Source: Verrucomicrobiia bacterium
GTDB lineage: Bacteria; Verrucomicrobiota; Verrucomicrobiia; Palsa-1439
Direction of reading: 5' to 3'
NCBI GenBank assembly: GCA_035515475.1
Contig: DATJBF010000005.1
Location: 41,420-105,419 of the forward strand
DNA: 64,000 nucleotides
Position numbers and translations under genes: made by a program. The notes under the pieces were generated by a model. It searched no databases. It worked only from the letters and a program-made list of their open reading frames with translations, and had not been told where the DNA came from. Of this stretch, positions 11,415 through 64,000 are shown piece by piece (positions within the stretch are counted from its first letter, which is position 1; every line of letters starts with the position of its first letter).

Positions 11415-11443
11415 AAACCATCGGAATAAGTTAGGAGGCCACG

Positions 11444-11872: not shown

Positions 11873-11919
11873 ACTGGTCTCAAACCCCGCAACCCGATTC
11901 ACCCGAGAGGAGAAACGCC

Positions 11920-12366
11920 ATGGGAATGATCAAGGAATTCAAAGAGTTTGCCATGCGGGGCAATGTCGTCGACATGGCCGTCGGCATCATCATCGGCGGC
12001 GCGTTCGGCAAGATCGTAACGTCGATGGTCAACGACGTGCTGATGCCGCCCATCGGGGTGCTGTTGGGTGGTGTCGATTTCGCCAGCCTGGCGATCAAAG
12101 TCAAAGACGCCACGGTGGACGCCGCCGGCAAAACGACGCCGGCCGTGATCATCAGCTACGGGAAGTTCATCAACACAGTGCTCGACTTCGTCATTGTCGC
12201 GTTTTGCATATTCATCGTGATCAAGGCCATGAACGCGATGAAACACAGGCTGGAGCACGCGCCGGCGGCGCCTTCCGCGCCGACGACGAAGGAATGTCCC
12301 CGGTGTTTCTCGACCATCCCGATCAGGGCCACCCGTTGCCCGCAGTGTACGTCGGATATCAAGTGA
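11920..12366 (+). CDS. mscL: large-conductance mechanosensitive channel MscL with C-terminal zinc-ribbon extension
   Basis: [31 protein letters not shown]...MPPIG is near-identical to E. coli MscL TM1. Two TM helices; extra C-terminal CPRC-x12-CPQC. Confidence 0.9.
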
Positions 12367-12523
12367 GCCGGTTGCAGCCGCGCTTTCGCGAGGCGCGGTG
12401 GTGGCAGTTCGGTGTGAACGGCCGGCGGTGGGTTTGCCGCCCCGGCCCGCCGGCTTGACCGCTGCCCGTGTTCGCCGCTAGTATGCGTCGCGGGCCACGA
12501 GCCGTCTGTCCCGGAAAGCATTC

Positions 12524-47101: not shown

Positions 47102-47115
47102 GGGCCCCGTCCTCC

Positions 47116-47250
47116 CAAATCCGAAATCCGAAATCCGAAGCCGAGCCGCAGGCGAGACCTGCGCAGCAAATCCGAAACAATTTCCAAACTCAAATTTGGG
47201 AAATTCGGATTTGGCTCGTATTTCGAGATTCGAATTTCGGATTTCATTTG
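47116..47250. repeat. AT-rich array of direct and inverted AAATCCGAA/TTCGGATTT motifs between resB stop and hemA start
   Basis: aaatccgaaatccgaaatccgaag (three or more direct copies), aaatccgaaacaatttcc...gggaaattcggattt (imperfect 18-20-bp inverted repeat), ttcgaatttcggattt. Local GC is far below the flanks. Confidence 0.7.
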
Positions 47251-48446: not shown

Positions 48447-48727
48447 GGCCACCTTTCGTGTGACGGGCGGTGGCTTAGCAGTGGCCTTGCCAGTGGATGC
48501 CGCAGGTTGGGGCGACGGTCTGTAAGCGCTTGGCCTACAGTCGATTGCCGTGCGCGAAATCGCGCAGGCGACGAATCGGCTGCGCCGATCGTCGACCGAC
48601 AGATTGGCGGCGGGCTCCCGTTTCATGACAGCTTGTCATCAGTCGCCAAGCCAAGAGGCGATAGGGGGACGCGCTGCGTTGCAACCGAATCTTTGACTCG
48701 GCTCCGCTATTCGTCGCGGTGTCAACC

Positions 48728-49381
48728 CTACGGAGGTGTCGTGCGTGTGAGGTAGCTCCTTCGCGATTCCCTCACTTGGAAGCCGATCCGTTTCTTCGGC
48801 GGCGGTTCTGGCAGCGCAGGTAGGTCGATGATGTCCATGACGCGTTGGAGGATGGTGACGATGGCCGCTTCGTGCACATCGAGCCGGTCCTTGAGTTCCT
48901 TTTCCAGCGCGGCGAGTTTGCGGGCTTGTTCGCGGGTCGCGGTCAGCGTGGCGCGCATCTTCACGAAGGCGCGTACGACAAACACGCTCATGTCGACGGC
49001 ACGTGGACTGTTGAGGACGTTTGCTGCCATAATGGCGCCGTGCTCCGTGAAGGCAAAGGGGAGATAGCGGCGGCCGCCCCTGCGTTTTGAGGTCACAATC
49101 TGTGACCTCAAAGCTCCTTCGGAACCGGTCACAAATTGTGATCGGTTCGATGCGGTCACAAATTGTGACCGCATGGCTTCAAAGTCCTCAGCGTTCAATT
49201 GGAACATGAAATCCGATGGAAATTTCCTCGAGTTGCGTTTGACTGCCTGATTCAAAGCCTTTGTTGTCACGCCGTAAACCGCTGCCAAGTCGGCATCGAG
49301 CATGACCTTCTGACCGCGAATCTCGTAAATCAGCCGGTCAAGATATTCCACCCGAATTACTGAGGGCTTCTCCTGAGCCAT
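48728..49381 (-). CDS. ORF6N-domain protein (phage/mobile-element-associated DNA-binding family) with internal triplicated RSQ(F/I)VT repeat
   Basis: IRGQKVMLDADLAAVYGVTTKALNQAVKRNSRKFPSDFMFQL ... RRYLPFAFTEHGAIMAANVLNS is the ORF6N signature. The canonical LRSQIVTS segment is preceded by two extra RSQFVT copies. Confidence 0.7.
   Translation of the reverse strand: MAQEKPSVIRVEYLDRLIYEIRGQKVMLDADLAAVYGVTTKALNQAVKRNSRKFPSDFMFQLNAEDFEAMRSQFVTASNRSQFVTGSEGALRSQIVTSKRRGGRRYLPFAFTEHGAIMAANVLNSPRAVDMSVFVVRAFVKMRATLTATREQARKLAALEKELKDRLDVHEAAIVTILQRVMDIIDLPALPEPPPKKRIGFQVRESRRSYLTRTTPP
49091..49170. repeat. three in-frame copies of a 17-bp perfect/near-perfect palindrome GGTCACAA(A/T)TTGTGACC with extended compensated arms, inside the ORF6N coding sequence
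   Basis: Copies at 49091-49107 (ggtcacaatctgtgacc, arms extend to ttgaggtcaca/tgtgacctcaa), 49127-49143 (ggtcacaaattgtgatc) and 49154-49170 (ggtcacaaattgtgacc, arms tgcggtcacaa/ttgtgaccgca). Spacings of 36 and 27 bp keep the reading frame. Confidence 0.8.
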
Positions 49382-49582
49382 CGCCGGGTAGTATGCCAAT
49401 GCGAGTCAGTGGCGGCAAGTCTCTCGTGACAGGTGTCAGCAACCGGACGAGGAACGCTCACGGCGCGCTCAGCGAGCACGCCCTACCAACGACCGTCAGG
49501 CGGAAACACTCGCGCCACTGCAAAAAAACGCCGGCCCGGTTGGTGACCGCGCCCGGCGTCGGCAGACAGGTCTCGGGAAAAC

Positions 49583-50176
49583 CTAGTGTTTGACCTTGGG
49601 ATCGGGATGCGCGATCAGCGCGAACGCCTGCTCGTAATCGAACCCGACTTTCTTGCCGTCCTTCGTCGTGTAGCGGTCGGGCTTCCAGGTTGGGTTCTGG
49701 CTGTTGTGGCACATCTCGCAGCTCTTCGACGCCGGATAAACCAGACCGCCCTCGATGGCTTTCGCGCGGTCTTCCATCGTGCTCTTCGCCATGTATTTCT
49801 TTCCGGGACCGTGACAGGATTCGCAGGTCACGCCATCTTCGGGTTTGATTTTTTCCGTCGCGACGCTCTCGGTGAAATTGTAGGCAGTCGAATGGCACCG
49901 GAGGCATTTGCCGCTGGTCTGGGGATTGTCAACGCCGACTTTGGCGCCCGCCGCTTTGGCCTCGGGCGTCCCGAGCAACTCGAACGCCTTGGCGTGTGGA
50001 CTAGCCTGCCACTTGGCCAGGGCGTTGCCGCTGTCTTCCGACTTGTGACAGAGGCCGCAGGTTCTGGCGCCGACGTAACTGGCGGCGTCGCGGTCAGCCG
50101 CGCTGCTGCTGAGTGAGATTAGCATTCCGGCTGCGAGAGTCACGCAAAGGGTCGATATCGGTGTCCGGTTCTTCAT
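49583..50176 (-). CDS. periplasmic tetraheme c-type cytochrome
   Basis: 197 aa from MKNRTPISTLCVTLAAGMLISLSSSAA (signal) with CGLCH, CLRCH, CESCH, CEMCH. The 533-aa ORF-track entry is an artefactual 5' extension. Confidence 0.8.
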   Translation of the reverse strand: MKNRTPISTLCVTLAAGMLISLSSSAADRDAASYVGARTCGLCHKSEDSGNALAKWQASPHAKAFELLGTPEAKAAGAKVGVDNPQTSGKCLRCHSTAYNFTESVATEKIKPEDGVTCESCHGPGKKYMAKSTMEDRAKAIEGGLVYPASKSCEMCHNSQNPTWKPDRYTTKDGKKVGFDYEQAFALIAHPDPKVKH

Positions 50177-50289
50177 CGTCAAGGCTCCTTGAATGACTGG
50201 TTCGTGTTCTGACCGGCTACTCCTCTGCCGGGCGATCATACCGACATCCCAGATTTTTTCCACACAAAAATGTTCGTCGTCAAACGTCC

Positions 50290-51486
50290 TTACCGTTCGC
50301 TCGCTGTGCGCGATTTCGCACCGACCGTCCCCGGATTTGGCGCGGCCTCGTCGGTTGGCGGCAGACGATGCGGCACGCCGTAGATGTCGAAGTGGTACCG
50401 GACGCCGACGATGCGGACGTTGGTTTCCGAAAGATGGCCGACAACACCGAACGCCACGGCCAAGACGACCGCCACGATGCCCACCGTCACCGCGATGGGG
50501 CGTTTCTTCGGATGCCGTTCCCGGCTGCGGTCCAGGAACGGCCAGAACAACAGCAGCAGCGGTGGGATCATCGAGACGAACAAACCGAGCGTCTTCGGGA
50601 AATACTTCAGCAACTGATACGTCGACAGGAAATACCATTCGGGTTTGATGCCTTCGGGCGTCACAAACGGATCGGCTTTCTCTCCCAACTCGACCGGCCA
50701 CAGCATGATCAGCGTCACGAGCACGCCGATGAGCACGCAGAACACCACGCCTTCCTTCAGCACGTGCTCCGGGAAAAAAGGGACCGCGTGCTTTTTGTCG
50801 ATGGGTTTCTCTTCGCCGACGCGTTCCATCGTGGCCAGCCCTTGTACGCGCATCAGGAACAGGTGTGTGGCGATGAGCATCGTCAGCACCCACGGCAGCA
50901 CCACCACGTGCAACACGTAGAACCGGGCCAGCGTCTCGCCGGTCACGCCTTCGCCGCCGCGCAACAGCAGTTGAATGTAGTTGCCGACCAGCGGGATTGC
51001 CCCCGTGATCTCGGTGCCAACAGTCGTCGCCCAGTAGCTGAGTTGGTTCCACGGCAGCAGATAACCCGTGAACCCGAAGGTGACGGTGCAACCAAGGATG
51101 AACACGCCCAGTACCCAGGTCAGTTCCCGCGGCTTCTTGTAGGCGCCCATGAAAAACGTCCGCATCATGTGGATCAGCACGCACAGGATCATCAGCGTCG
51201 CGCCCCAGGCGTGCAGCCCGCGAATCAGCCAGCCGAAATGCGCCTTGGTCATGATGAACCGCACGCTCTCGAACGCCGTGTTGGTCGTCGGCCGATAATA
51301 GATCATCAGCAGGATGCCCGTGACGACCTGGTTGACGAACAGGAACAGCGACAAACTGCCGAACGTGTGCCAGAAACCCGTGGCCTGCGGCAGCGGCTTG
51401 TGCAGTTGGTCGTCGGCGAACTTCTCGGCCACGCCGATGTCGAAGCGCTGCGCCAGCCAGTCGTGGATTCGCGGAGGCAATTTCAC
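50290..51486 (-). CDS. cytochrome b of a Rieske/cytb (bc1/b6f-type) complex, with fused subunit-IV-like C-terminus
   Basis: FGSLSLFLFVNQVVTGILLMIYYRPT, conserved heme-ligand His pairs (HFGWLIRGLHAWGATLMI...VLHVVVLPW), PEWY-like region (PEWYFL), 398 aa. Confidence 0.9.
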   Translation of the reverse strand: MKLPPRIHDWLAQRFDIGVAEKFADDQLHKPLPQATGFWHTFGSLSLFLFVNQVVTGILLMIYYRPTTNTAFESVRFIMTKAHFGWLIRGLHAWGATLMILCVLIHMMRTFFMGAYKKPRELTWVLGVFILGCTVTFGFTGYLLPWNQLSYWATTVGTEITGAIPLVGNYIQLLLRGGEGVTGETLARFYVLHVVVLPWVLTMLIATHLFLMRVQGLATMERVGEEKPIDKKHAVPFFPEHVLKEGVVFCVLIGVLVTLIMLWPVELGEKADPFVTPEGIKPEWYFLSTYQLLKYFPKTLGLFVSMIPPLLLLFWPFLDRSRERHPKKRPIAVTVGIVAVVLAVAFGVVGHLSETNVRIVGVRYHFDIYGVPHRLPPTDEAAPNPGTVGAKSRTASER

Positions 51487-51920
51487 GCCGGTTTCACCAT
51501 GACTTCGCCGTTGATCACCACCACGCCCTGCTCGGGCAACGGCCGCGGCGGCGGACCCGCCACGGGGCGTCCATCAAGGTCGAAGAATCCCCCATGACAC
51601 GGGCAGGCGATCTCCCGTCGCTGCGGATCCCAGCCGACGACGCAGCCGAGGTGCGTGCAAATGGCCGAGAACGCGCGAAACCCTTGCGGAGTATGGACGA
51701 CGATGACGGGGTGGCCGCTTACCGCCACGATTTTCGCCTGCCACTCGGGAAAATCGGCGGCCTGGCCGGCCGACACCGTCTGGGTACTGGGACCCCGGCG
51801 CTGGGCCGGCCACACGTAGCTGAGCACCGGCGCGACGAACCCGACGGCCCACGCGACCAGACCGCCGGTCAACACCCAGTCCAGAAACGACCGGCGTGAG
51901 ATTCTCTTTTCGTCACTCAT
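51483..51920 (-). CDS. Rieske [2Fe-2S] iron-sulfur subunit
   Basis: Tat-like RRSFLDW, TM anchor, and boxes CTHLGC ... CPCHGG; 4-nt overlap with cyt b. Confidence 0.9.
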   Translation of the reverse strand: MSDEKRISRRSFLDWVLTGGLVAWAVGFVAPVLSYVWPAQRRGPSTQTVSAGQAADFPEWQAKIVAVSGHPVIVVHTPQGFRAFSAICTHLGCVVGWDPQRREIACPCHGGFFDLDGRPVAGPPPRPLPEQGVVVINGEVMVKPA

Positions 51921-53136
51921 CCTTGTCCCTATGTTCGATTTGCCGGCGTTTGGCCCAGAACAACACCGCCATCAAGAGCAGGAACACCCAGATCGGCACC
52001 AGCGCGCCGCGTTTCCAGCGTTCGAACCGCTCCAGGCCCGCGACGTCCGCCAGCGTCTGGTGAACGATTTCCTGGGCTTGGCCAGCCACGGGCTGCAGTT
52101 CTTTGACCGACAACGTGTGTTGGAGCGCCTCGAGTTGCGTTACCTGCGTCTTGGCTTCCTGCAACAGCAACTGATCGTCCTCGGTCGCCAGCCCGCGCAC
52201 GGTGGCGTCGTGAACGGCCGCGTCGGCCCGTTCGTAGCCGGCCTGTTCTTTGCGAATCAGCCCCGCCACCGCGTCGCGCACCGCCAGTTGCTTGGGATCG
52301 TTGGCGTGACATTGGATACAGGCCTTGGCGAATAATTCCACCGACGCCTTCTGGATGGCATGGTGGCCGTGGCAACTGATGCATTCGTTGAACAATCCGA
52401 CGGACACAAGTTCGGCGTGGGGACTCTTGTCGAACAACTCGCGCTGGCGAACGTGACATTTCCCGCAGACCTCGCCCACTTCCTTCGTTCCCGGCGGCGT
52501 CGCCCCGTGGCTGCCGTGGCAGGTAACGCAGGTCGGGGCGCTCAGGTCGCCTTTCTCGAACAGCATGTACGCGTGGTAACTGGATTTGTATTGGGTGATG
52601 ATGTCGGTCGGCAGCTTGTATCCTTCCATCAACCTCGCGTTGCCGTGACAGTGGCCACAGGTGTCGGGAATGTTCGTCGGATACACGTGGGCGTCGGGCG
52701 ATTTCACTTTGAGGATATCGTGGACGCCGTGGCAGTCGACGCAGACGGCGACGTTCTGGTCGTTGTGCCCGAACAGTTGCTCGCCGTGCTTGCTGGTCTT
52801 GTAGCGGTCGAGTTGATCCGTGGGCAGGCCGTAGGGATTCATCTTCCGCACGTCGCTGTGGCAACTGGCGCACAACTCGGCGATCGCCTGCTTGGTGTCG
52901 GGCCGCTTGAAATTGTTCGTCGCGTGCGCGGTCTCGTCGGTCGCGTTCGGGTCGCCGCCGTGACAATCCACACACGTCAGCCCGGCCTGCGCATGGGCGC
53001 TGGGGGCGAACAACGTCTTCTCCTTGACGTGGCACTTGAGACAGGAGATCTCGGCAGCCGACGCCGGGACGGCGACGGCCAGGGACACCAGTGCCCAGCC
53101 GATTACATCGAGGTGCCGTTGTGGCAATCGCTGCAT
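51913..53136 (-). CDS. 9-heme c-type cytochrome subunit with C-terminal TM anchor (cytochrome c component of the Rieske/cytb complex)
   Basis: Signal MQRLPQRHLDVIGWALVSLAVAVPASA; CLKCH, CVDCH, CASCH, CVDCH, CGHCH, CVTCH, CGKCH, CISCH, CIQCH; C-terminal TM ALVPIWVFLLLMAVLFW; 8-nt overlap with Rieske. Confidence 0.85.
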   Translation of the reverse strand: MQRLPQRHLDVIGWALVSLAVAVPASAAEISCLKCHVKEKTLFAPSAHAQAGLTCVDCHGGDPNATDETAHATNNFKRPDTKQAIAELCASCHSDVRKMNPYGLPTDQLDRYKTSKHGEQLFGHNDQNVAVCVDCHGVHDILKVKSPDAHVYPTNIPDTCGHCHGNARLMEGYKLPTDIITQYKSSYHAYMLFEKGDLSAPTCVTCHGSHGATPPGTKEVGEVCGKCHVRQRELFDKSPHAELVSVGLFNECISCHGHHAIQKASVELFAKACIQCHANDPKQLAVRDAVAGLIRKEQAGYERADAAVHDATVRGLATEDDQLLLQEAKTQVTQLEALQHTLSVKELQPVAGQAQEIVHQTLADVAGLERFERWKRGALVPIWVFLLLMAVLFWAKRRQIEHRDKDE

Positions 53137-54689
53137 CTCTGGCCTTTCCAGGCGTCGCCCAGATCTTCGGACGGATGCTGAAACTCGAAACCTTGGGCGC
53201 TCAACGTTTTCAAGTCCGTTCCCGGTCCTTGCGCGATGATTGTATGACAACTATTGCAGTCTGCCGAGATCGTTTTGCGTTCGGCTTGTGGTGAGCCTGC
53301 CGAACCCGCTTGTGGTGAGCCTGTCGAATCCACCTGTGGTGAGCCTGTCGAATCCACGGCGGCGTGCTCGCCGTCGTGACAGCGGAAACAGCCGGGCCAT
53401 TGGAAGTGGCCGATGTTGTTCGGATACACTTTCCAGGAGGATCTCATCTCGGGGAAGAAATTTTCGCGATAGATCTTCTGCACCTCGATGATGGCGCGGT
53501 GGATGGTCGCGGGGTCGGACGAGGCATATTTCTTGGAGAGTGAGTCGGCAATCTTTTGCAGGGCTTCCGGCGTCGTCTGGTAGTCGGCGGCGAGTGCGTC
53601 GACCGCATTTTTCTTGATCGAGGGCAATGCCGGATCGATCCGCCCCAGCGACAGCGCAATGTCCACCGCCTCGTCGGGCGAGAGGAAGATATGCGTGGGC
53701 CGGTTGTGGCAATCGATGCAATCCATCCGCCGGATCGCCGCGCTGGTGATCTGGTCCGGTTTCAGTTTGCTGTCCTTCGCCTCGTAAACGGTCACGTGAC
53801 CCTGGCGGTCGGTGATCCGCACCCAGGGAATCACCTGGCGCGCTTCATCGGTGGCGATGTACTCGACTTTGTTGGCCACGTTCATATGCCAGTGGATGCC
53901 GCCGACGGGGCCGTGGGTCGGGTCGCCGCCGCCGACCTTGAGCAACATCTGGATCGTCCACGGGCTGTTCTTTTCGTCGTACTTGAAATGCGTGCGCACC
54001 TTCTCGATCGCACCGTAGAACTTCTGCGGCCAATGGCATTGCTCGCAGGTCTCCTGGGCCGGCCGCAGGTTCTTGACCGGGGTCGGAATCGGGCGCGGAT
54101 ATTTGTCGAACAACGTGGCGTAGACCTGGTAGCTCCCCGATAATTTCGATTTCACAAACCAGGTCGCGCCCGGGCCGATGTGGCACTGCACGCATTCGAC
54201 CCGCGCGTGCGACGAGTTGTGGTAGGCCGTGAACTCCGGTTTCATCACTGCGTGACAGGTCTGCCCGCAGAACTGGACGGACTCGGTGAACTCATACGTC
54301 CGATAACTGCCGAGGGCCGTGAACAGCAGGAACACGAACGTGACCACCACCACGATGATGAAGGCCCGGCGCTGGCGCGGGATGTTGAGATCGATGCGCG
54401 GGAGACGCGGGATTTGGCCCGGCAAGACCCGCCGCCGCTGGCGCCGTTCCAAAAGCACGCCGATCAGAATGAGCAGCAAACCCGCGAACAAAAATCCCGG
54501 CGCAATCAGATACGTCAGGATACCCATGTACGGATTGCTGAACCCCGCGAAGAAATCGATGGCAATGAGACACACGACCGCGAAGAAACTGCAGGCGGCG
54601 AGAATGATGCCGGACAGACTGATCCAATTCTGAATCAGCGGCGGAACCTTGCCTGCTCCCGGATTCGGTTGCGTGCTCTCCTCGGGCAT
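53103..54689 (-). CDS. ImcH-like inner-membrane 7-heme c-type cytochrome (NapC/NirT-family quinol dehydrogenase)
   Basis: 2-3 N-terminal TM helices, then NapC/NirT-like heme 1 (FCGQTCH, CVQCH), CEQCH, CIDCH, CFRCH, CNSCH, CSDCH. 528 aa matches the ImcH description (7 hemes, NapC/NirT homology, N-terminal TMs). Confidence 0.75.
   Translation of the reverse strand: MPEESTQPNPGAGKVPPLIQNWISLSGIILAACSFFAVVCLIAIDFFAGFSNPYMGILTYLIAPGFLFAGLLLILIGVLLERRQRRRVLPGQIPRLPRIDLNIPRQRRAFIIVVVVTFVFLLFTALGSYRTYEFTESVQFCGQTCHAVMKPEFTAYHNSSHARVECVQCHIGPGATWFVKSKLSGSYQVYATLFDKYPRPIPTPVKNLRPAQETCEQCHWPQKFYGAIEKVRTHFKYDEKNSPWTIQMLLKVGGGDPTHGPVGGIHWHMNVANKVEYIATDEARQVIPWVRITDRQGHVTVYEAKDSKLKPDQITSAAIRRMDCIDCHNRPTHIFLSPDEAVDIALSLGRIDPALPSIKKNAVDALAADYQTTPEALQKIADSLSKKYASSDPATIHRAIIEVQKIYRENFFPEMRSSWKVYPNNIGHFQWPGCFRCHDGEHAAVDSTGSPQVDSTGSPQAGSAGSPQAERKTISADCNSCHTIIAQGPGTDLKTLSAQGFEFQHPSEDLGDAWKGQRCSDCHNGTSM
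53286..53357. repeat. 24-bp tandem direct repeat x3 inside the ImcH-like coding sequence (encodes VDSTGSPQ x3)
   Basis: ttgtggtgagcctgccgaacccgc / ttgtggtgagcctgtcgaatccac / ctgtggtgagcctgtcgaatccac; in frame, located between hemes 5 and 6. Confidence 0.85.
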
Positions 54690-54901
54690 GTTGCGCCGGC
54701 GATTATTAGCGTTGTCGCGCGGGTTGCGTCAAGCGTTCCATCGACTGATGAAGGTAGGGACGCGCTCCGGCGCGTCCACGGGTCATTGGGACGCGGTGCC
54801 CCGCGTCCGTGGCCGCGCCGCAGCGCAGCCCTACCAAGGCTGTTCCTTGATGCCTCCCCAATCTCGACTCGACAAACTGTCCGTGATAAAAGGCGCCCAA
54901 G

Positions 54902-55939
54902 ATGAAATCCGCTGGCGACACGGTAGAAGTCGCATTGCTGAATCAAATCCAGACCGAGGTTCCGGTCGCGGAACATCCGTTTGCCGAACTCGGTCGCAAG
55001 ATCGGCGCGACCGAAGAACAGGTGATTCAGCGGCTGGAATCGCTCAAATCGGCCGGCATCATCCGCCAGATCAGCGCCATTTTCGACACGCGCAGCCTAG
55101 GCTACGCGTCCAGCCTCGTGGGGGCGCGCGTCGACCCGGCGCGCGTGGACGAGGCCGCCGCCGTCATCAGCCAACATCCCGGCGTCAGCCACAATTATCT
55201 CCGGAACCACACGTTCAATCTCTGGTACACCATCGCCGTCTCGCCGTTGAGTAAGCTGGGATTGGAGAAAACCGTCGAGATTCTGCACCGCGAATCCGGC
55301 GCCGAATCGACCCGGCTGTTGCCTACGCTCAAGCTCTACAAGATCGGAGTGAAATTCGACGTCGGCGGAGACGAATCGCGTCCCGACGATCAGGACGCGC
55401 CGCCGTACACCGAAACCAACCGCGCCGCCGACACGGCGCTCACGCCGGCCGAGATCGAGTTTGTTCGCGTCATGCAGCGGGATTTGCTGCTGAAACCGAC
55501 GCCGTTCGTCGATTACGCGCGCGAACTCGGTATCTCGTTTGCCGAATTGCAGGCGATGCACCGGCGGTTCCTCGACACCGGCAAAATGCGGCGGTTCGCC
55601 GCGGTGCTGCACCATCGCCAAGCCGGGTTTAAGGCCAACGCCATGGGCGTCTGGGCCGTGCCCGGTGCTGACGCGGAAGTGGACAGGGTGGGGGAGACGA
55701 TGGCCGGTTTCCGGGTTGTCAGTCATTGTTACAAGCGTCCGATTTATCCCGACTGGCCGTACAACATTTTCACGATGGTCCACGGCAAGACTCGGGAGGC
55801 ATGCGAGCAAACGTTGCGTGCCATCGCCGAAAAGACCGGCATACGAGATCGCTCCGCTCTTTACAGCGCCAAGGAATACAAGAAGGTCCGCGTCCGGTAT
55901 TTCACGACCGAAGAAGAAACGTGGGAACGACAACACTGA
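54902..55939 (+). CDS. fused siroheme decarboxylase AhbA/AhbB (NirD/NirL-like, two tandem Lrp/AsnC-type modules)
   Basis: 345 aa made of two roughly 160-aa AsnC-like halves, each with an HTH and an HNYLRNHTFNLWYT-type motif (second half VVSHCYKRPIYPDWPYNIFTMVHG), as in NirDL/AhbAB fusions. Confidence 0.75.
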   Translation: MKSAGDTVEVALLNQIQTEVPVAEHPFAELGRKIGATEEQVIQRLESLKSAGIIRQISAIFDTRSLGYASSLVGARVDPARVDEAAAVISQHPGVSHNYLRNHTFNLWYTIAVSPLSKLGLEKTVEILHRESGAESTRLLPTLKLYKIGVKFDVGGDESRPDDQDAPPYTETNRAADTALTPAEIEFVRVMQRDLLLKPTPFVDYARELGISFAELQAMHRRFLDTGKMRRFAAVLHHRQAGFKANAMGVWAVPGADAEVDRVGETMAGFRVVSHCYKRPIYPDWPYNIFTMVHGKTREACEQTLRAIAEKTGIRDRSALYSAKEYKKVRVRYFTTEEETWERQH

Positions 55940-56083
55940 GTAGAACACGCTCCTCACGATTTGTCATTTTGAGCGAAGCGAAGAATCTCTCTTTTTTTCG
56001 CGATCTCTCAAACGACTGAGACCCTTCGCTGCGCTCAGGGTGACACCCCATCGTCGTTCCCGGAGCGGTTGCCCTAGAAGAGT

Positions 56084-56461
56084 TTGTGTTACAATACCGA
56101 CCGGAGAATCATCATGGCGCGCAAACAATCAACCGCATCCCGGAAGAGTTTCACCACACAACCCACCCGCCCCGCCGCTCTCGTGGATTACCAATCCGAC
56201 GCCATCGTCAGCCGCGAAGTGCTGAAGAAGAAAACCGGTTCGGTCACGCTGTTCGCGTTCGACGCCGGGCAGGGGCTGAGCGAGCACACCGCGCCGTTCG
56301 ACGCGTTGGTACAGGTGCTGGACGGCGAAGCCGAGATCACCATCGCCGGCAAACGTCACCGGGTGTCAGCGGGCGAATTGATCCTGATGCCCGCGAACCG
56401 TCCCCACGCCCTGAAAGCCGTCCACCGCTTCAAAATGATGCTTGTTATGATCCGGTCGTGA
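56084..56461 (+). CDS. small cupin-domain protein
   Basis: 125 aa; conserved cupin beta-strands (TLFAFDAGQGLSEHTAPFDALVQVLDGEAEITIAGKRHRVSAGELILMPANRPHAL). Confidence 0.7.
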   Translation: MCYNTDRRIIMARKQSTASRKSFTTQPTRPAALVDYQSDAIVSREVLKKKTGSVTLFAFDAGQGLSEHTAPFDALVQVLDGEAEITIAGKRHRVSAGELILMPANRPHALKAVHRFKMMLVMIRS

Positions 56462-56493
56462 GAGCTTTGCTCACGGATTGTAGATCCAACGAT

Positions 56494-58011
56494 TCATTGG
56501 TCGCGGTTGTTGCCTGTTTCAGACTCTCTCCTGATTCGGACCAGAATCTGATCTGTGCCGCTCACGGGGACATCGTCTGATATCAGGTTGACCGCCAGCT
56601 TTGAATCGACAGCGTCGCCCAGGCCCTCGCGCAGTATGACAACAGTCGCTTTTCCAGAACTGCTGCCCTGCGGAATCGTCAGGGGATTGGGCATCACAAA
56701 AACGTTTCGCCCCGGAACGAGGTCGCCCTGTTCGGGTAGTGCCAGCACTACGGACAGATCTCGTGGCGCAACACTATTCAACTTCACTGCAAGATCGATT
56801 GCCCGAGTGCGTTCATTCGATCTGAGAACCACATCCTTCGCCGGCGGCTCCTGAAAGGATACGGAAAGACCTTTCGTTTCCTCCGGGTTGTGCCTGCCGG
56901 TTAACCGAGAATCAGGTCGCGCACCCGAATTGCCCGGCAGGCATCTGGATCTGGTTGGGGCGTCAACGATGCTTTCGAGCACTTTATTGGGGAGATACTC
57001 GAACGTGTTTTTGTTGAACGCAATGAGCGCGTCAAAGGCTCGCCGTCTGTCGTACGGGACAAAGTCGTCCTTCAAGTTCCCAGCGCGCGCCGACTGGATC
57101 TCAGCCATCAGGACGTCAGTCCCCGAATCAAAACTGAAGTCGGCGAACGACACCGTTTTCCGCAGGCCGGAATTCAGTGCTCGATAATGAATCCGGTGAT
57201 TGCGAGGATCGTAGACCACCTGATACTGTGAATTGCTCTGTCGTACGTCGTCCAGAATGTTGAAGCCGTAGTCCACGAGCGAATCACCCGACACATTCAA
57301 GCGGTCGGTTTTCTCGGCCACGTGGAGAAACCTGCAACAGGAACTGGTCACGCGGTAGGGAGCCCGTTTCTCCACCGGCAGTCGCTTCTGCTCCGTCAGA
57401 TAAGCCAACAGATGCTCGTAGGTATCGTTTGTCAGGACAGCATAGGGCAACGCATCGCCCGTGTAGGTTTTGCAGTGGCTATCGACGTACTCAACAACCA
57501 TCGACGCACCAGAGCTGTCGCATAACAAAAAGTGGCTGTCGCCAATACTTCGGCTGGAAATGCGTATGTGCTTCATGCTCTCCAGCACGTCATGGAGCGT
57601 CGCCGAGTTGTCCAATTGGTACTGAATCCATCCGTTCTCGTCGATGGGGAGGCGGTCGTCGGGTTTCGGAAACCTGGTCTCATCCAAACCGAGCGAAAGG
57701 ACGACCAGGCCGGCTTCGTTCATCCCGTCATGGGGCCAGTCCCGCCCCACCAGATTGAAGGTGATACTGCCGTATTTCGACACCCACCGAGCAGGCTTCT
57801 CGGCATAGAGGAGAAACCGCTCGCGCTCGACATTCCGCTTGTTCACGTAGATGTGTCCGGCTCCGAACTGAAAATCAAAGCTAAAGCACACGACGTGACC
57901 ATTCGTTCCGACCATGGAGAATGCCGTGCAAGCAAATGTGCTCTGTCGAGCTGAGGCGATCAGGACAGCGAAGCCCAATAATTTAGCGAAGGTTCTCATC
58001 CTGGTCCGCAT
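56494..58011 (-). CDS. Ntn-hydrolase of the choloylglycine hydrolase/penicillin V acylase (linear amide C-N hydrolase) family with C-terminal extension
   Basis: Signal peptide ending ...QSTFA followed by nucleophile Cys (CTAFSMVG) and conserved MNEAGL motif; about 170-aa extra C-terminal domain; GC lower than background. Confidence 0.7.
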   Translation of the reverse strand: MRTRMRTFAKLLGFAVLIASARQSTFACTAFSMVGTNGHVVCFSFDFQFGAGHIYVNKRNVERERFLLYAEKPARWVSKYGSITFNLVGRDWPHDGMNEAGLVVLSLGLDETRFPKPDDRLPIDENGWIQYQLDNSATLHDVLESMKHIRISSRSIGDSHFLLCDSSGASMVVEYVDSHCKTYTGDALPYAVLTNDTYEHLLAYLTEQKRLPVEKRAPYRVTSSCCRFLHVAEKTDRLNVSGDSLVDYGFNILDDVRQSNSQYQVVYDPRNHRIHYRALNSGLRKTVSFADFSFDSGTDVLMAEIQSARAGNLKDDFVPYDRRRAFDALIAFNKNTFEYLPNKVLESIVDAPTRSRCLPGNSGARPDSRLTGRHNPEETKGLSVSFQEPPAKDVVLRSNERTRAIDLAVKLNSVAPRDLSVVLALPEQGDLVPGRNVFVMPNPLTIPQGSSSGKATVVILREGLGDAVDSKLAVNLISDDVPVSGTDQILVRIRRESETGNNRDQ

Positions 58012-58171
58012 CACCAAATCGTCTTGTCCCATCGCGCCCATTGCAGCATAAAGACGAACCAGCGGCTGGAACGGATACTGGCAAAGTGCGCGGACATGGG
58101 CAAGGGAATTGGAGTTGTCAGCGGTCAGCTATCAGCTTTCGGCGGTCAGCCACCAACGATCGAGTCCGGCC

Positions 58172-58313
58172 GGCGAAGCCGAGATCACCATCGCCGGCAA
58201 ACGGCACCGCGTTCCGACGGGAGAGCTGATCGTGATGCCCGCGAACCGTCCCCACGCCCTGAAAGCCGTCCACCGCTTCAAAATGATGCTCATCATGTTC
58301 CGGTCGTGAGGAG
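58172..58313 (+). pseudogene. 5'-truncated paralogous copy of the cupin gene 3' end
   Basis: 142 bp about 90% identical to 56322..56463. It encodes EAEITIAGKRHRVPTGELIVMPANRPHALKAVHRFKMMLIMFRS versus EAEITIAGKRHRVSAGELILMPANRPHALKAVHRFKMMLVMIRS. Upstream sequence is unrelated, and similarity ends exactly at the stop codon. Confidence 0.6.
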
Positions 58314-58439
58314 ACGGTAGTCCACGAAAACCTTCGGGGTGGACACTGGGTTGCCGGCTAACAGAAGATTGTGTCAAACGCGAGTTCGCGCTGTAACGCG
58401 GGTGGTTCGCGGATGCGTAAGCGAGACCCTAAAGCTGCG

Positions 58440-60200
58440 TTACCGGCCCCAAGGCAGATTGGTCCTCCACGCATCAGTTTTTCTCAAGGATGCGCGCCTA
58501 CTGATTACGCGTTGCCAATCGCTGTTGTCTTGTTTCGAGGCGTAGATGATGTCCACTGCGTTCGGTGCGTCCACTGATTCAACTTGGGCCATCGTGACCG
58601 CCTGCTTCTGGCCTTGAGCCGTTTCGGCGATTACTTTGGCCGCAAATGGTTGTATCGTCATACCTACATCGGCAGGGAGCACGGGGAGACCGAGTTCCTT
58701 TGACAGAGACGCTGCCAGTACAATCCTTTTGCTTTTTAGCTCGTACCCCATCTCAGATATAAGTATCCCACTCGGCGAGAGTTCTTTCGCTAAGTAACCA
58801 ACCCCCAATATGCCGAGGTGATTTCCATATCGACATTCCCGAGGCGGAAGATCCGCGGGGATCTTCCCGAGGATTCTACGGAAATACAGAAGCGCATCTA
58901 ACTCGCTTTCTGTTGTGCCACCAACGTTGCATAGGGCGACAAGTCGGGCGGGATGGTCTCGCTTGACCACACTCCTGTAAGCATCGAGAACCCCTTCGTC
59001 TAGCGCCGTATCAGAAGTATACAGCAGAGCCCCCTTCTGTCTCCCGCTGCGCCGCACAAAGAAAAGGCCAAACCCCATGTTCCTGCCAATGCAGTCACGA
59101 TGAACAGTGGGCAACGCTGTCACGACAATGCCGTTTGAAAGTGGCCACTTGTCACCAGGACGCACAATCTTCAGCTCAAGATAATCCGAACTTGCACCCA
59201 AGTTGATCACTCCCGATAGATAGGTGTAGGCAGACAAGCTCAGGGTCAGTCGTACTCGCCTCTGTCCGTCTCCACGCCCAGGCTCGGCCCGTAAAGTGAA
59301 AGCGGAGCGGGAATGTGAAGTGCGCGGACCGACGTGGCGCTGCTCATAAACGGCGGTTAGCAGGTTAGGGCAGTCGGCCAAGTGGTCCGGATGCGCATGA
59401 GTAATGATGATTTCTTGGATCATATCCAATGATAGATCTGACTTCAGGAATGTTCTTGTGAAGTCGAAACCTGGATCGACAACTACGCCCTCTGTGCCCG
59501 TCCAGAGAAACAGGCCTCCTCCGTAATCCGATTCCACATTGAATATTGGGGAGAATGAATTGAACCGCTTCAGATGGAAAAGGGTCGGAGCTGTCGGCCT
59601 AATCTCCTTGGGGGTCGGCTTGTTTGCACTGAGTAGTTGATTCTCCTCTTCGTTTCTTGCCTCTACAATGCCAAGCCCCAATTCGGTCAATACCTCAAAA
59701 CCGTATGTGTCTCCTCGGTACACCTTCAGCGCATCACGCCAAAATGGGGGCGGCTGTAGATTTTCGAAGTCGGACGGCCGCAACTGGCAGTGTCTGCAAC
59801 CGTTCTGTCCAAGAGCGTAATACACGTTAGCAGCCAATGGATTGTCAAAACGGGTATCCAGTAGGCTGGCGACTTTCAGGCTGACGGCACGGCATGTACT
59901 AATCGACTCTCGGAACTCGCGCACCAAAGCGAGAAAGGTAGATTCTTCCCCCTTTTCCCCGGCTTCGATCAATGCAGTGAGTTTGAGCAGAGGAACAACG
60001 GCAGCCCCAAGGGGTGGCAGATGTACTGGATGCTTCGCACTCGACCCGGTGTGTAGTTGAAGGCAAGTGTTATATGCCCATTCGAAACGATCATCGGCCT
60101 TGGTCACGCCGTCAACGAAGGCATGGTACTGCTCACGTGAGACGAGTCCTTGCTTGTGCAGATGTTCGATTGTCTCCAAGTACTGCTGTGCGGTTAACAT
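58440..60200 (-). CDS. metallo-beta-lactamase-fold hydrolase with about 250-aa N-terminal domain of unknown function
   Basis: MBL motifs (GGGLFLWTGTEGVVVDPG, IIITHAHPDHLADCP HxHxDH, later His/Asp ligands). Probable start MLTAQQYLETIEHL at about 60200, giving a 58-bp spacer to the upstream gene; GC about 50%. Confidence 0.7.
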   Translation of the reverse strand: MLTAQQYLETIEHLHKQGLVSREQYHAFVDGVTKADDRFEWAYNTCLQLHTGSSAKHPVHLPPLGAAVVPLLKLTALIEAGEKGEESTFLALVREFRESISTCRAVSLKVASLLDTRFDNPLAANVYYALGQNGCRHCQLRPSDFENLQPPPFWRDALKVYRGDTYGFEVLTELGLGIVEARNEEENQLLSANKPTPKEIRPTAPTLFHLKRFNSFSPIFNVESDYGGGLFLWTGTEGVVVDPGFDFTRTFLKSDLSLDMIQEIIITHAHPDHLADCPNLLTAVYEQRHVGPRTSHSRSAFTLRAEPGRGDGQRRVRLTLSLSAYTYLSGVINLGASSDYLELKIVRPGDKWPLSNGIVVTALPTVHRDCIGRNMGFGLFFVRRSGRQKGALLYTSDTALDEGVLDAYRSVVKRDHPARLVALCNVGGTTESELDALLYFRRILGKIPADLPPRECRYGNHLGILGVGYLAKELSPSGILISEMGYELKSKRIVLAASLSKELGLPVLPADVGMTIQPFAAKVIAETAQGQKQAVTMAQVESVDAPNAVDIIYASKQDNSDWQRVISRRASLRKTDAWRTNLPWGR

Positions 60201-60258
60201 ACCGCATATATACCGGACTAAGGCACACTCCAGTAAATCGCACGGGCTATCTTCCACC

Positions 60259-62907
60259 TTACGGTCCCTCGATATCTTGAAGTTCAAAATAGACACGACA
60301 AAGCTCTTCGTGGATCTGTTCCAATGGACATATCTTGCTGTAGTGGAGGATGCCTTCCTCGCTAGCGTTTGCGCGTTCCAGCGCCAAATCGCCTTGAACA
60401 TACTGTAGGAACCGAGACACGATTTCCGTGAGTTCCGATTTCGTTGGATCAGGGACGCGCGGATAGCACACCGGGTCAGAAAAAGGAGCAGGGACAAAAC
60501 ACATGAAGTACATTAGTTCCACATAACTGATACGGCTGCTCAGTTCTGTCAGATAGAAAGTCCCGCGGTGCCTAATCGATATCGCTGCCTGGCTTCCTTC
60601 TGTCAACTCGTCGCTTTCCGGCGTTACCTGCGTGAGTCGCGCGGCATTGAGATGCGCAATGGCCGTCCTGATGTCTGTCTTAATGTAACCGAGCCCGAAC
60701 AGATAATCATAAACTTCTGAAACGGACGTGCGCCGCACCTTCCTAAGAATCTCTAGGATCCTAATGGATAGCAACGTGGTCGCGTACCCTTGTACGCCTG
60801 GGACGTGAAACAAATTGACCAAGCTTTGAGGCAGCCGTTGCGGACTCTCCCGGGACAGGAAGAGAGCACGGAAAAGCATATGTTCCGCGATGAAGTTGTG
60901 GCGGAAGGTCTTCGATCGCCAAACTAAACTCTCTGGTGTTCGCTTCATCATGTCCACATAGGGGGAAGATATCAAGTGCGAGAACAATTCAAGGCCAGCA
61001 CGGATGTTGGTGCCTGTGAATCCATCAATGAGGCTGGCTAGGGTAGTTACGGGTCGTTTGCTCTTGGAAGTGCCTACCGGCAGTGAGAGCAGCGAGCGAA
61101 GCTTTGCGAAAGTGGGCATGTATTTCCGACCTCCGCACTCTGCTTGGATGACGTCAATCCTCTTTTCGACTATGCTGCGCAAACTAACCTTCTTCAGCCA
61201 CGTCCGGCTGAACGTATTGTATTCACCATTATCCTGTATGAACAGGGACCTCTCAGGATGTAGACCAATCTTGTCCGCAAAGAGGTCGAACGACGAAGGC
61301 CGACAGGCAACGACGAATTTCAGTCTCTCGTATTGCGTTGCAAACGCACGATGCAGGGCCTCAAGTAGAAGACGCTCGGAATTCCGACTCGCAAGCCGGT
61401 CGATGTTATCAAGGCAGAGAACGAGCCTGCCGTATTTCTCAATACATGCATCAACGAAGCTTCTAACAAAAGTCACCACTTCCGAGTCGAGCATGGCATG
61501 TCGTCGACTGAGGTAGCGACTAAGGTAGACGGACTTCCAGTCCTGCAACCCTTCACGAATGAGATCACCATCCAAATAGGGTACTGCGGGCTCGGTGGAC
61601 GGAAAGGCGCGTTCAGCTATCCAGTCAGCCACGTATCGAATTGGTTTGCCCGGCTGATCTGAGTTGATTTGCAGCCACACGTGGCGAAACCATTCCCAAG
61701 GTCTCTCTCGGAGGCACTGCTCACAGGCGTCAAACGCCATTCTCTCGTTCTCGCAGACACGCCGACTAATCGACTCGGCTAGCTTCAACAATCCAGGCTC
61801 TCCGAGCCTCAACATTATCTCGCGGCGCAACTCATTAGAGACCACATCCTCAAACAGAATGTTTCGCTGCTGTTCAAAATACCACATGGCGCTTCGGAAG
61901 TATCCATGTGGATTCAGATCGCAATATTTCTGAGAAAGTTCTGTCGGCAGTGGACCGGTGTAATGAGCGTCGATATACAACCGAAGGTTTCTCAGTATCC
62001 TTGAGTGTAAGTTGCTGCTGTCTTCGATATAGCCATAGCGCAGAAAATCGACGATGATGTATGGGATATGGCGTTTTCTGAAAGGATCATAGCTACGGCA
62101 GTAGTAATGGAGAAACGAACTCTTCCCGCAACCCCTGCGACCGACTACAAGGTATGTCATCCTAGCATCGTCGGCGTTTAACTCCTTATCGAACACGTTA
62201 ATACTGTCCAGATACCGGTGCGCTGGATCGACGACTCTGTCTGCCTCATCCTCAAAGTTTTCAAGGTAAGCGGGCTCATACGGAACATGCGCGGCTTCAA
62301 ACTTCTTGGTGTTCTCGAGCAGTGCGGCCGTAGGCAACTTGTTTGCAGTGAGAACCAGAATCTGGTCGATATCCCTTCTGACGACCCCATGGTCATACAA
62401 TTCGCAGATTTGTGTTCGCGGGGCTTTTGCAAAGCGAGTTATGTCCAGCAGTTCCTCAACGAGTCTACGGAAGTTAACTTCACTCGATACGACGTACTGA
62501 AGAGTTGTTAGACGGAAACGACTCGACCTCTTGAGCCCGAGATTCCAATCTTCCTTCGCAGATGAAATCAGAAGTACCTTGCGAACGTTACTACCCGACG
62601 ACTCGATTGCACCAGCCCACTCATCGGCGGAATCAATCTGTGCAATCGGACACCCCTGCACCAGCAAGAGGTCGTAGGTCCCTAGCGACAACGTCCGTTC
62701 AAACTGGCCGAGATGTCGCAACCATGTGAGAAAAATATCCCCTGTGTTCATTTCGGCTTGCTGCTTTGCGACAACAGCCGTTTGGACGTCGCGGGTACCA
62801 AGCCATTGGAATCGGAGGGCGGTCATTTGCAGCGCCTCATGTTCAAGGCCTGCTACGAGTATCCTCTTTGTTAAGGTGGGACGATCAGGGTCAGTCTTCA
62901 CACTCAT
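60259..62907 (-). CDS. large P-loop NTPase (882 aa) with N-terminal Rossmann/receiver-like domain and long helical insert; STAND/KAP-like, family unassigned
   Basis: Walker A LVVGRRGCGKSSFL. Candidate Walker B LVLCLDNIDRL lies about 220 aa downstream (alternative NILFEDVV). N-terminal about 200 aa have beta-alpha-beta pattern (RILVAG, DLLLVQG, KVLLISSAKED) without receiver Asp pocket. Low GC (about 48-50%). Confidence 0.7.
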   Translation of the reverse strand: MSVKTDPDRPTLTKRILVAGLEHEALQMTALRFQWLGTRDVQTAVVAKQQAEMNTGDIFLTWLRHLGQFERTLSLGTYDLLLVQGCPIAQIDSADEWAGAIESSGSNVRKVLLISSAKEDWNLGLKRSSRFRLTTLQYVVSSEVNFRRLVEELLDITRFAKAPRTQICELYDHGVVRRDIDQILVLTANKLPTAALLENTKKFEAAHVPYEPAYLENFEDEADRVVDPAHRYLDSINVFDKELNADDARMTYLVVGRRGCGKSSFLHYYCRSYDPFRKRHIPYIIVDFLRYGYIEDSSNLHSRILRNLRLYIDAHYTGPLPTELSQKYCDLNPHGYFRSAMWYFEQQRNILFEDVVSNELRREIMLRLGEPGLLKLAESISRRVCENERMAFDACEQCLRERPWEWFRHVWLQINSDQPGKPIRYVADWIAERAFPSTEPAVPYLDGDLIREGLQDWKSVYLSRYLSRRHAMLDSEVVTFVRSFVDACIEKYGRLVLCLDNIDRLASRNSERLLLEALHRAFATQYERLKFVVACRPSSFDLFADKIGLHPERSLFIQDNGEYNTFSRTWLKKVSLRSIVEKRIDVIQAECGGRKYMPTFAKLRSLLSLPVGTSKSKRPVTTLASLIDGFTGTNIRAGLELFSHLISSPYVDMMKRTPESLVWRSKTFRHNFIAEHMLFRALFLSRESPQRLPQSLVNLFHVPGVQGYATTLLSIRILEILRKVRRTSVSEVYDYLFGLGYIKTDIRTAIAHLNAARLTQVTPESDELTEGSQAAISIRHRGTFYLTELSSRISYVELMYFMCFVPAPFSDPVCYPRVPDPTKSELTEIVSRFLQYVQGDLALERANASEEGILHYSKICPLEQIHEELCRVYFELQDIEGP

Positions 62908-63207
62908 TTCGCCTCCAAGGCGCTACTTCAACGCCGCATTTAGCTTCGCCCTCTGTAACAGACAGGAGATTGCTTCTCCTCACCTCTGCCAAGTTGCTGA
63001 AGGGAGCATCCGACAGTGCTTCTCGTGAAATGAAACGAGGTCATAGAATGTTGCAGATAAAGTCAAAGTCAAGCTTTAACAGCTGCGAGCTCACAGTCAA
63101 AGCGATTCCGTCTTGCTAGGGTTTCAGAATTCACCGACGGCACTGGCGCCATTCTCGCTGGCGATGCGGGTGGGGAATGTGATACAACATCGGGGCGACG
63201 GGGAAGA

Positions 63208-64000
63208 ATGATGAGCGGGAAGAGAAGGTTGTTTACCACTACTGGTGTCGCTGCAATCGCGGCATTCATGATCCTCGCTGCCCCTTGCGTGGGGCAACAG
63301 TCGCCCGAGAAACAGGCTGCCGCACCGTCGGCGTCAAAGCGCGTCCGCGAGCCGGCGGTCGCCGGGCTGTTCTACCCGAAAGATCCAGCCACGCTGTCGC
63401 ACATGCTCGATGCGTTGCTGGCGAACGCGACGCCCCACACAATCGACGGCGAACTCCGCGCGTTGGTTTGCCCGCATGCCGGGTATCCGTACTCGGGGCC
63501 GGTCGCGGCGACGGCGTACCGGCTGTTGTCGGGTCACAATTTCCAGACCGTCGTGCTCCTGGCGGTGAGCCATTACGCCGGTTTTGCCGGGGCGTCGGTC
63601 GCCAACGCCGATGTGTACCGCACACCGCTCGGGGACGTGCCGGTCTCACCGAAAGCCCGGGAACTGGCGAAGACCAGTCCGTTCATGCTCGAACCGCGCT
63701 GCTTCGTGCAGCGACCGTCTTGGTTCTCACAAGCGTCGCACGCCGTGCCGCCCGATGGCGCGGACACGCCGGAGACGTGGGAACATTCCGGCGAGGTACA
63801 GGTGCCATTTCTCCAAAAGACGCTGAAGAATTTCGAGCTTGTGCCGGTCGTCACCGGCGAGGCCGACCCCGAACTGATGGCGCGCGCGCTTGCCCCGCTG
63901 GTGGACGACAAGACGTTGGTCGTGGCGAGCACGGACCTGAGCCATTACCACCCGTACGACGAGGCACGCGCCAGGGACAAGGTCACCACCGATGCGATCG
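63208..64000 (+). CDS. MEMO1-family protein (AmmeMemoRadiSam system protein B-like), partial, continues past window end
   Basis: ATG 63208 then signal-like N-terminus and GLFYPKDPATLSHMLDALL...LVCPHAGYPYSGPVAATAYRLL...VVLLAVSHY...VVASTDLSHYHPYDEA motifs typical of MEMO1/AmmeMemoRadiSam B. No stop in the window, so it is absent from the ORF track. Confidence 0.75.
   Translation, partial: MMSGKRRLFTTTGVAAIAAFMILAAPCVGQQSPEKQAAAPSASKRVREPAVAGLFYPKDPATLSHMLDALLANATPHTIDGELRALVCPHAGYPYSGPVAATAYRLLSGHNFQTVVLLAVSHYAGFAGASVANADVYRTPLGDVPVSPKARELAKTSPFMLEPRCFVQRPSWFSQASHAVPPDGADTPETWEHSGEVQVPFLQKTLKNFELVPVVTGEADPELMARALAPLVDDKTLVVASTDLSHYHPYDEARARDKVTTDAI

Follow-up and report, generated by a model that had tools for sequence, protein, structure and literature searches.

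Genomic islands at the 3′ ends of tRNA and tmRNA genes are bracketed by a direct repeat of the end of their target gene, which is reconstituted, and variable or defence-island hotspots are places where the same pair of core genes flanks differing cargo. In Escherichia coli K-12, the element e14 lies in the 3′ end of a protein-coding gene, icd, and supplies it with a slightly different replacement tail, while the original tail survives as the C-terminal pseudogene icdC at the far end of e14; recombination between the two tails would give a chimeric but functional gene (PMC13626634, citing Hill et al. 1989). Displacement of the homology-facilitated illegitimate recombination (HFIR) type has been proposed to explain both the effector-immunity modules of the V. 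cholerae type VI secretion system (T6SS) and the orphan 3′ ends of Rhs loci (PMC5361080). Here, we describe a locus in a stretch of 64,000 nt from a Verrucomicrobiia bacterium (GTDB Palsa-1439; assembly GCA_035515475.1, contig DATJBF010000005.1, positions 41,420 to 105,419; hereafter the window), in which the 3′ end of a small cupin gene recurs as a truncated relic on the far side of a gene for an N-terminal nucleophile (Ntn) hydrolase of the CBAH family. We conclude that the cupin relic is a real and well-supported, but ordinary, insertion scar of horizontal gene gain, and that it adds a new example to a type of event already known. A first-pass annotation of the window had interpreted it as a duplicated, 5′-truncated paralog at a recombination or insertion junction, which proved essentially right, given refinements to the register of the repeat, to the idea of duplication in situ, to the placing of the junction at an island edge and to its setting, which is a recurrent variable hotspot. 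The features that carry the argument are, in window coordinates:

56114..56461, plus strand: intact cupin gene, 115 aa (Pfam Cupin_2 PF07883, E=1.3e-10, model positions 3-69 of 70)
56324..56463, plus strand: repeat copy 1, cupin codons 71-115, the stop codon and 2 nt
56494..58011, minus strand: CBAH / penicillin-V-acylase family Ntn-hydrolase, predicted secreted (Pfam CBAH PF02275, E=1e-10; open reading frame (ORF) open to 58041)
58012..58171, no strand: non-coding DNA upstream of the CBAH gene, ending at 58171/58172, the only junction without a homologous counterpart
58172..58311, plus strand: repeat copy 2, the 5′-truncated cupin relic, codons 71-115 and stop (coding part 58172-58309)
58321..58387, plus strand: remnant of the native cupin-downstream spacer, directly following copy 2 (collinear local alignment to relatives)

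A repeat search of the 64-kb window returned a direct repeat of 143 nt (56320-56462 and 58168-58310), 90% identical, with its two starts 1848 nt apart, which is the longest repeat of the window and, on comparison of the window with itself, is present in two copies only. Searched with blastn, the cupin gene matched the window a second time at 89.4% identity over 142 nt (E=3e-50); a third copy did not appear even at word size 7. The repeat of about 90% proposed in the first-pass annotation is therefore real, but the intervals given there (56322-56463 and 58172-58313) were out of register by 2 nt: the true register pairs 56324 with 58172, at cupin codon 71. As had been claimed, copy 1 forms the last 45 codons, and so the 3′ end, of a gene that is intact and has a near full-length Cupin_2 match, and the second copy lacks the cupin 5′ half, with no match to cupin nt 1-206 upstream of it by blastn or tblastn. 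Identity between the copies runs out one base past the stop codon (TGAG, then GAGCT versus GAGAC).

Across codons 71-115 the copies are separated by 14 nucleotide differences, which alter seven codons synonymously and five non-synonymously (S85P, A86T, L91V, V111I and I113F), with synonymous divergence dS=0.34, non-synonymous divergence dN=0.05 and a ratio omega=0.15, as against dS of 0.21-0.69 and omega of 0.03-0.22 in orthologue pairs over the same segment. By our own binomial estimate, five or fewer non-synonymous differences of 14 would be expected with p ~0.002 if all divergence had been neutral and ~0.06 if one lineage had been. Together with omega, this indicates that most of the divergence arose while both tails belonged to working genes, bearing out the earlier claim that both copies were once under purifying selection.

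Differences between the copies are strikingly patchy: the first 32 nt are free of them, the 33 nt that follow (codons 81-91) contain ten, a further 58 nt are again free, and four fall in the last 12 coding nt. The opening 32-nt stretch is conserved in all orthologues. The 58-nt tract, the longest exact run common to both copies, differs between copy 1 and orthologues at 3-6 sites in 54 scored nt, compared with 0 between the copies (rough p ~0.006). It includes a His104 codon (CAC), present in both copies and in none of the seven close relatives examined; both copies also have GCG94, otherwise seen in the homologous loci L180 and L181 only. Orthologue-like divergence around an identical 58-nt tract points to homologous pairing of two cupin alleles. 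In the patch of codons 81-91, copy 1 resembles L180/L178 (30/33), whereas copy 2, which reads GTTCCGACGGGAGAGCTGATCGTG, is unlike all 87 alleles (best 26/33). At the 3′ end the pattern is reversed: copy 2 has the consensus CTC ATC at codons 110-111, whereas the end of copy 1, CTTGTTATGATC, carries a CTT GTT found in 0/7 close relatives. The numbers are small (Fisher p 0.02-0.05), but such a reciprocal pattern would be expected if two diverged alleles had undergone one crossover within the central tract. Residues P85 and F113 of copy 2 occur in 0/87 homologues and fit some decay of that copy after displacement, whereas T86 and V91 do occur in functional homologues.

The DNA around the copies suggests which of them is original. 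The ~70 nt after copy 2 are collinear with the DNA that immediately follows the cupin stop codon in two relatives, L097 (z=4.6, 0/200 shuffles as high) and L090 (z=3.4, 3/200 shuffles as high), whereas the 130 nt after copy 1, like the 130 nt before copy 2, show no spacer homology above shuffles, suggesting that copy 2 is still joined to its native downstream flank. Copy 1 is joined to the native 5′ half of the gene, and the 1848 bp from 56324 to 58171 behave as an insert, of which the CBAH ORF fills all but ~190 nt, with 32 nt separating it from the cupin tail. The resident tail that was displaced thus seems to be copy 2, while the insert that rebuilt the gene seems to consist of copy 1, the CBAH gene and ~160 nt on the upstream side of CBAH. 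Those upstream nucleotides (58012-58171) have no similarity to any relative's intergenic DNA or to cupin nt 1-206, and at the joint 58171/58172 copy 2 reads CCGGCC/GGC and copy 1 CTGGAC/GGC, so that 4/6 nt before the joint match between the copies.

Relatives of the window show the uninterrupted state. The intervals between the cupin gene and the next conserved gene, Memo/AMMECR1, compare as follows, with the remaining features of the window given first:

58440..60257, minus strand: metallo-beta-lactamase (MBL)-fold protein, 605 aa (Pfam Lactamase_B, Lactamase_B_2)
60259..62826, minus strand: P-loop protein, ~855 aa (motif GRRGCGKS; weak AAA_16 and ATPase_2 matches; ORF open to 62907)
63152..64000, plus strand: Memo/AMMECR1 gene (start 63210) with ~55 nt upstream, the right conserved flank, where homology to relatives resumes
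Window, cupin-Memo interval: CBAH gene, cupin relic, MBL-fold gene, P-loop gene
L090-L092, cupin-Memo interval: no gene, ~440-nt spacer
L086, cupin-Memo interval: one unknown 465-aa gene (2161-3558), without Pfam or PADLOC match
L087/L088, cupin-Memo interval: KaiC-like ATPase of 1174 aa and an HD-CE protein (L087 10666-15733)
L181, cupin-Memo interval: PMT_2 glycosyltransferase and a 160-aa gene (10703-12640)

Cupin orthologues at 84-96% protein identity share this neighbourhood, and content between the same flanks that differs in every lineage identifies the interval as a recurrent variable hotspot. At the nucleotide level, relatives cease to match the window at the stop codon of the cupin gene and match it again from ~55 nt ahead of the Memo gene (63141-63157 by blastn), where the right flank is 82-83% identical to L086, L087, L090 and L181; in L081, the gene call carries the Pfam entries Memo and AMMECR1. 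All cargo at the hotspot is on the minus strand, and its sole protein to match a known defence family is the KaiC-like ATPase of L087 (weak PADLOC match to mad8, E=3e-8). In L090-L092 an uninterrupted cupin gene is followed directly by Memo/AMMECR1, which supports the insertion junction proposed at the outset. A second cupin piece was present neither in L086, L087/L088, L090-L092, L097 or L181 nor in other homologous loci with flanks. Among the fetched homologous loci only L103 has a second cupin match in reach, and both of its genes are full-length, while the closest relative by context, L180, has the NirDL-like gene, then a single cupin gene, then native spacer. Relatives with an intact second cupin gene in the arrangement of the window, which the first-pass annotation had named as a sign of misannotation rather than truncation, were looked for and not found. 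Loci L001-L012, found via the neighbouring NirDL-like gene (66-74% identical), have no cupin gene beside it and are uninformative on the junction. There is no conserved cupin-CBAH pair either, as the readable contexts of CBAH homologues (46-51% identical) are not near cupin genes. Cupin homologues number in the thousands, the closest 84-97% identical over the aligned part. The identical cupin protein is found on at least five contigs, its 90%-identity cluster in the protein database is a single sequence, and neither an uninterrupted ancestral allele nor an excision chimera was found in that database.

We consider it probable, though by no means certain, that the arrangement arose by recombinational insertion via the homologous cupin 3′ end, Campbell-type or by HFIR, with displacement of the resident tail. 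The ancestor would have carried one cupin gene, its native spacer and, further on, Memo/AMMECR1, with lineages gaining and swapping cargo there. Incoming DNA from a related lineage, with a CBAH gene just downstream of its own cupin gene, may have paired with the resident cupin gene by means of their homologous 3′ ends. The exchange would have brought in 1848 bp, made up of the tail of a cupin gene, the 32 nt after it, the CBAH gene and the ~160 nt on the upstream side of CBAH. Copy 1, a tail brought at least partly by the insert, would have rebuilt the cupin frame, and the resident tail (copy 2) and native spacer would have been pushed 1.85 kb downstream, no longer translated as part of the gene. 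Two routes could lead there: a single reciprocal crossover of the Campbell type by a circular molecule, within the 58-nt identical tract, or HFIR of a linear fragment, with a homologous crossover in or upstream of the cupin gene, an illegitimate joint at 58171/58172 and later conversion of the central tract.

The homologous segment that such an event would use is present at the insertion point, as the 140-nt cupin tail stands on both sides of the insert, and the CBAH gene bears signs of foreign origin in its GC content (55%, against ~61-63% in the flanking genome) and in a nearest homologue only 50% identical. No recombinase or integrase gene lies between the repeats, where the CBAH gene is the only gene-sized ORF with a family match, or in the rest of the island. 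With no room for one in the insert and none in the island, host homologous recombination would be the simplest agent. Direct observations are the repeat and its anatomy, the existence of the hotspot, the presence of a single copy in relatives, the signature of selection and the mosaic identity of the copies.

Several points weigh against this history. A donor with CBAH directly downstream of cupin was not found, a weak negative given that the databases hold no CBAH closer than ~50%; the 87 homologous loci searched contain no allele that matches the copy-2 patch or the copy-1 CTT GTT, so that a foreign origin of the divergent patches stays presumptive. Identity of the central tract needs an extra step, conversion or heteroduplex repair, the stretch behind copy 2 that resembles native spacer is short and its match of moderate significance only, and there is no close sister strain (>90% nucleotide identity) to show the pre-event state. 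The donor arrangement, the direction of exchange and an enzyme system of host homologous recombination, not an integrase, are what we infer. The ‘duplicated paralog’ of the first-pass annotation accordingly survives as a 5′-truncated second copy, but probably not as the product of duplication in situ: two alleles appear to have been joined by recombination, with copy 2 on its native spacer.

A duplication of the tail in situ when the CBAH gene was inserted, for example through template switching, a long staggered break or a tandem duplication with later replacement, with copy 2 decaying since, would account for the His104 and GCG94 codons common to both copies and for the larger number of lineage-specific changes in copy 2 (~8, including P85 and F113) than in copy 1 (3-4) when polarised with L180. 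However, an omega of 0.15 is too low for a pair of which one member was neutral throughout, and the copy-2-specific changes are clustered, 5-6 of ~7 falling in 33/138 nt (p ~0.01 by our own binomial estimate). Furthermore, dS is as large as that to other lineages even though the copies do not differ at all in the central 58 nt, and T86 and V91 are residues that working homologues use. We therefore regard this origin as unlikely.

Also unlikely, in our view, is an origin from a site-specific integrative element, now a remnant, that like e14 and phage 21 targeted a gene's 3′ end, here that of cupin, carried a replacement tail in its attP, left the original tail at its far end and either lost its integrase by deletion or was served by one in trans. 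The opening 32 identical nt could be its core and the boundary falls exactly at the stop codon, but those 32 nt are conserved in all orthologues anyway, the ~190 nt that the CBAH ORF leaves in the insert hold no integrase or other recombinase, and homology extends to both sides of the 32- and 58-nt identical tracts, which an integrase does not need. Nor does a cupin-tail repeat occur at the hotspot of four other lineages, the second cupin match of L103 being a full-length gene rather than a tail, and a third copy near the Memo gene, as tandem integrations at an attachment (att) site would leave, was not detected by blastn at word size 7 or by tblastn. The absence of such repeats around the cargo of those four lineages also makes it highly improbable that the cupin 3′ end is a docking site for integrase-less cassettes moved in trans by a recombinase encoded elsewhere, which would make the hotspot a cassette-capture locus and the relic an old attachment site between successive captures, first of CBAH and then of the MBL-fold/P-loop pair.

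From the sequence of copy 2 itself, we interpret it as a pseudogene fragment and not a working gene. It matches only positions 27-66 of 70 of the Cupin_2 model, at 28.7 bits against a cut-off of 27.2, which is half a domain. That it was kept for a function, as a 66-aa half-cupin protein (58109-58309) or as DNA acting as promoter, leader or terminator in the stretch from the MBL operon to the CBAH gene, strikes us as very unlikely: one gene caller does list the 66-aa gene (in L082), the frame is still open and the segment lies upstream of the CBAH gene on its transcribed strand, but only the second half of the cupin model is there, the start is a TTG with GGAG abutting, so without normal ribosome-binding spacing, residues foreign to the family occupy conserved positions, and no gene with exactly the 66-aa product is recorded in the collection. 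Promoter and terminator scans returned no such site in 58042-58440, and their counts were not above shuffles.

Weakest of all is an assembly artefact, a chimeric or collapsed contig joining two strains' versions of the locus, which is very unlikely as the source of the arrangement: the source is a metagenome-assembled genome with two alleles of one gene tail close together, but the same collinear, gene-complete 7.4-kb structure occurs with 0 mismatches in three independent assemblies (L081, L082 and L083, over 55900-63299 or to contig end), the cupin/CBAH junction is also spanned by two short contigs, and the 58-nt exact run is shorter than the assembly word size of 141 suggested by ENA contig names starting with ‘k141’, and hence, if that is read rightly, too short to cause collapse.

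As for the cargo, the N-terminal nucleophile of the CBAH family is the cysteine that follows the leader. In the window protein and its 10 aligned homologues alike, a hydrophobic leader is followed by an invariant Cys38-Thr39. The automatic gene call, of 473 aa from 57915, omits the leader (57916-58011) and Cys38, and the true start is probably 58011 or 57999. As far as its sequence can tell, the gene is intact, with leader and predicted catalytic cysteine. The first-pass annotation had correctly placed a CBAH-family gene of lower GC on the opposite strand between the copies: its GC content is 55.4%, followed by the MBL-fold gene at 53.1% and the P-loop gene at 51.2%, against 60-65% in the NirDL-like, cupin and Memo flank genes. 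Its junction is likewise real, but lies inside the low-GC island and not at its edge, where it separates two separately acquired cargo modules, CBAH (55% GC) and the MBL-fold and P-loop pair (51-53% GC).

The MBL-fold protein is rare, with 11 homologues among 5.8 billion clustered proteins, the closest 35% identical over at least 90% of the query, and no match in a PDB sequence search. It stands beside a protein of ~850 aa in three unrelated contexts. The P-loop protein is 34% identical over 700 aa to the gene adjoining the MBL homologue in L176; the pair occurs between housekeeping genes of unrelated genomes (L176 5464-9815; L177), each about one third identical. PADLOC gave no convincing match on the cargo genes of the window. 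The two genes form a conserved, mobile two-gene module, possibly an undescribed defence-like or other mobile system.

The cupin gene is bordered by variable DNA on both sides, as its 5′ codons vary and the gene upstream of it changes. Its first ~22 codons (56114-56180) take two unrelated forms in close relatives, MARK... and MKD..., the homology of relatives to the cupin region starts either 10-12 nt before the ATG (56102) or only at codon 21, and the upstream gene is NirDL-like, a nucleotidyltransferase or DUF6448, depending on the relative. In the window it is a NirDL/AhbAB-like gene, and a multihaem-cytochrome/bc-type operon lies upstream as well. Between the NirDL-like and cupin genes lies an 85-nt palindromic element (55962-56046) resembling repetitive extragenic palindromes (REP) or miniature inverted-repeat transposable elements (MITE), with arms GTCATTTTGAGCGAAGCGAAG and CTTCGCTGCGCTCAGGGTGAC and an RNA fold of -39.1 kcal/mol (z=-5.4). 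The arm pattern occurs once only in the window, and related copies, which in L178/L179 follow the cupin gene and in L087 and L181 lie elsewhere, suggest that the element moves around the cupin neighbourhood. L103, a more distant relative, has its two full-length cupin paralogues ~3 kb apart (10001-10327 and 13166-13474), 68% and 73% identical to the query.

Other repeats of the window are unrelated in kind. The 1848-nt spacing of the cupin-tail repeat recurs in repeat family D5, but by coincidence: the D5 copies (2980-3069 and 4828-4917, 74% identity) both lie within one 999-aa UvrA gene and belong to the two ATP-binding cassette (ABC) ATPase modules of that protein. Short repeat families D2, D3, D6, D7, D11, D12 and D16, among multihaem cytochrome genes at 42800-54700, probably reflect repeated CxxCH haem-binding motifs, judging from the plus-strand pattern GTGGCA...GCA.

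The scar offers a rare base-level view of the stacking of foreign genes at one hotspot, in an uncultured peat lineage of Verrucomicrobia, with a conserved small gene that served as homology handle, and dates two separate acquisitions relative to one another. Annotations should list copy 2 as a pseudogene fragment instead of a 66-aa gene and should move the CBAH start upstream to take in leader and cysteine. Through the 58-nt exact tract the CBAH segment could loop out, leaving a chimeric cupin gene, and the rare MBL-fold and P-loop pair at the hotspot may merit a study of its own.

Set against the described systems, the cupin locus shares features with each. Like tRNA and tmRNA islands, it has a repeat of the target's 3′ end that brackets the insert and a rebuilt gene, but the target is protein-coding, the repeat is 10% diverged with mosaic identity, there is no tyrosine recombinase and the window has a single tRNA gene, 36 kb away. 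Like variable and defence hotspots, it has one core pair, cupin and Memo/AMMECR1, bracketing different content in five lineages, including NTPase-plus-hydrolase pairs, but with a single weak defence match, to mad8, and with CBAH and PMT_2 genes that are not defence-like. As in icd/e14 (and phage 21), a rebuilt gene stands at one end (56114-56461) and a truncated original tail at the other (58172-58309). In contrast, e14 is a 15-kb prophage with an integrase and SOS-induced excision, whereas the cupin insert is 1.85 kb with one hydrolase gene and no recombinase, and other cargo at the cupin hotspot lacks such a tail repeat. An integrase and a recurring att repeat were both sought and neither was found, so that the cupin case, for all its likeness to icd/e14 in outcome, falls outside that class. 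As in the displacement proposed at T6SS and Rhs loci, a conserved upstream gene would act as homologous anchor, the new module brings its own 3′ end and the old 3′ end is shifted downstream as an orphan (PMC5361080). Those arrays consist of toxin C-termini and immunity genes, with orphan immunity kept by selection, unlike the cupin piece, which has no evident use and stems from an event that seemingly happened once. Homology-anchored displacement of this kind is a closer mechanistic match to the cupin locus than icd/e14.

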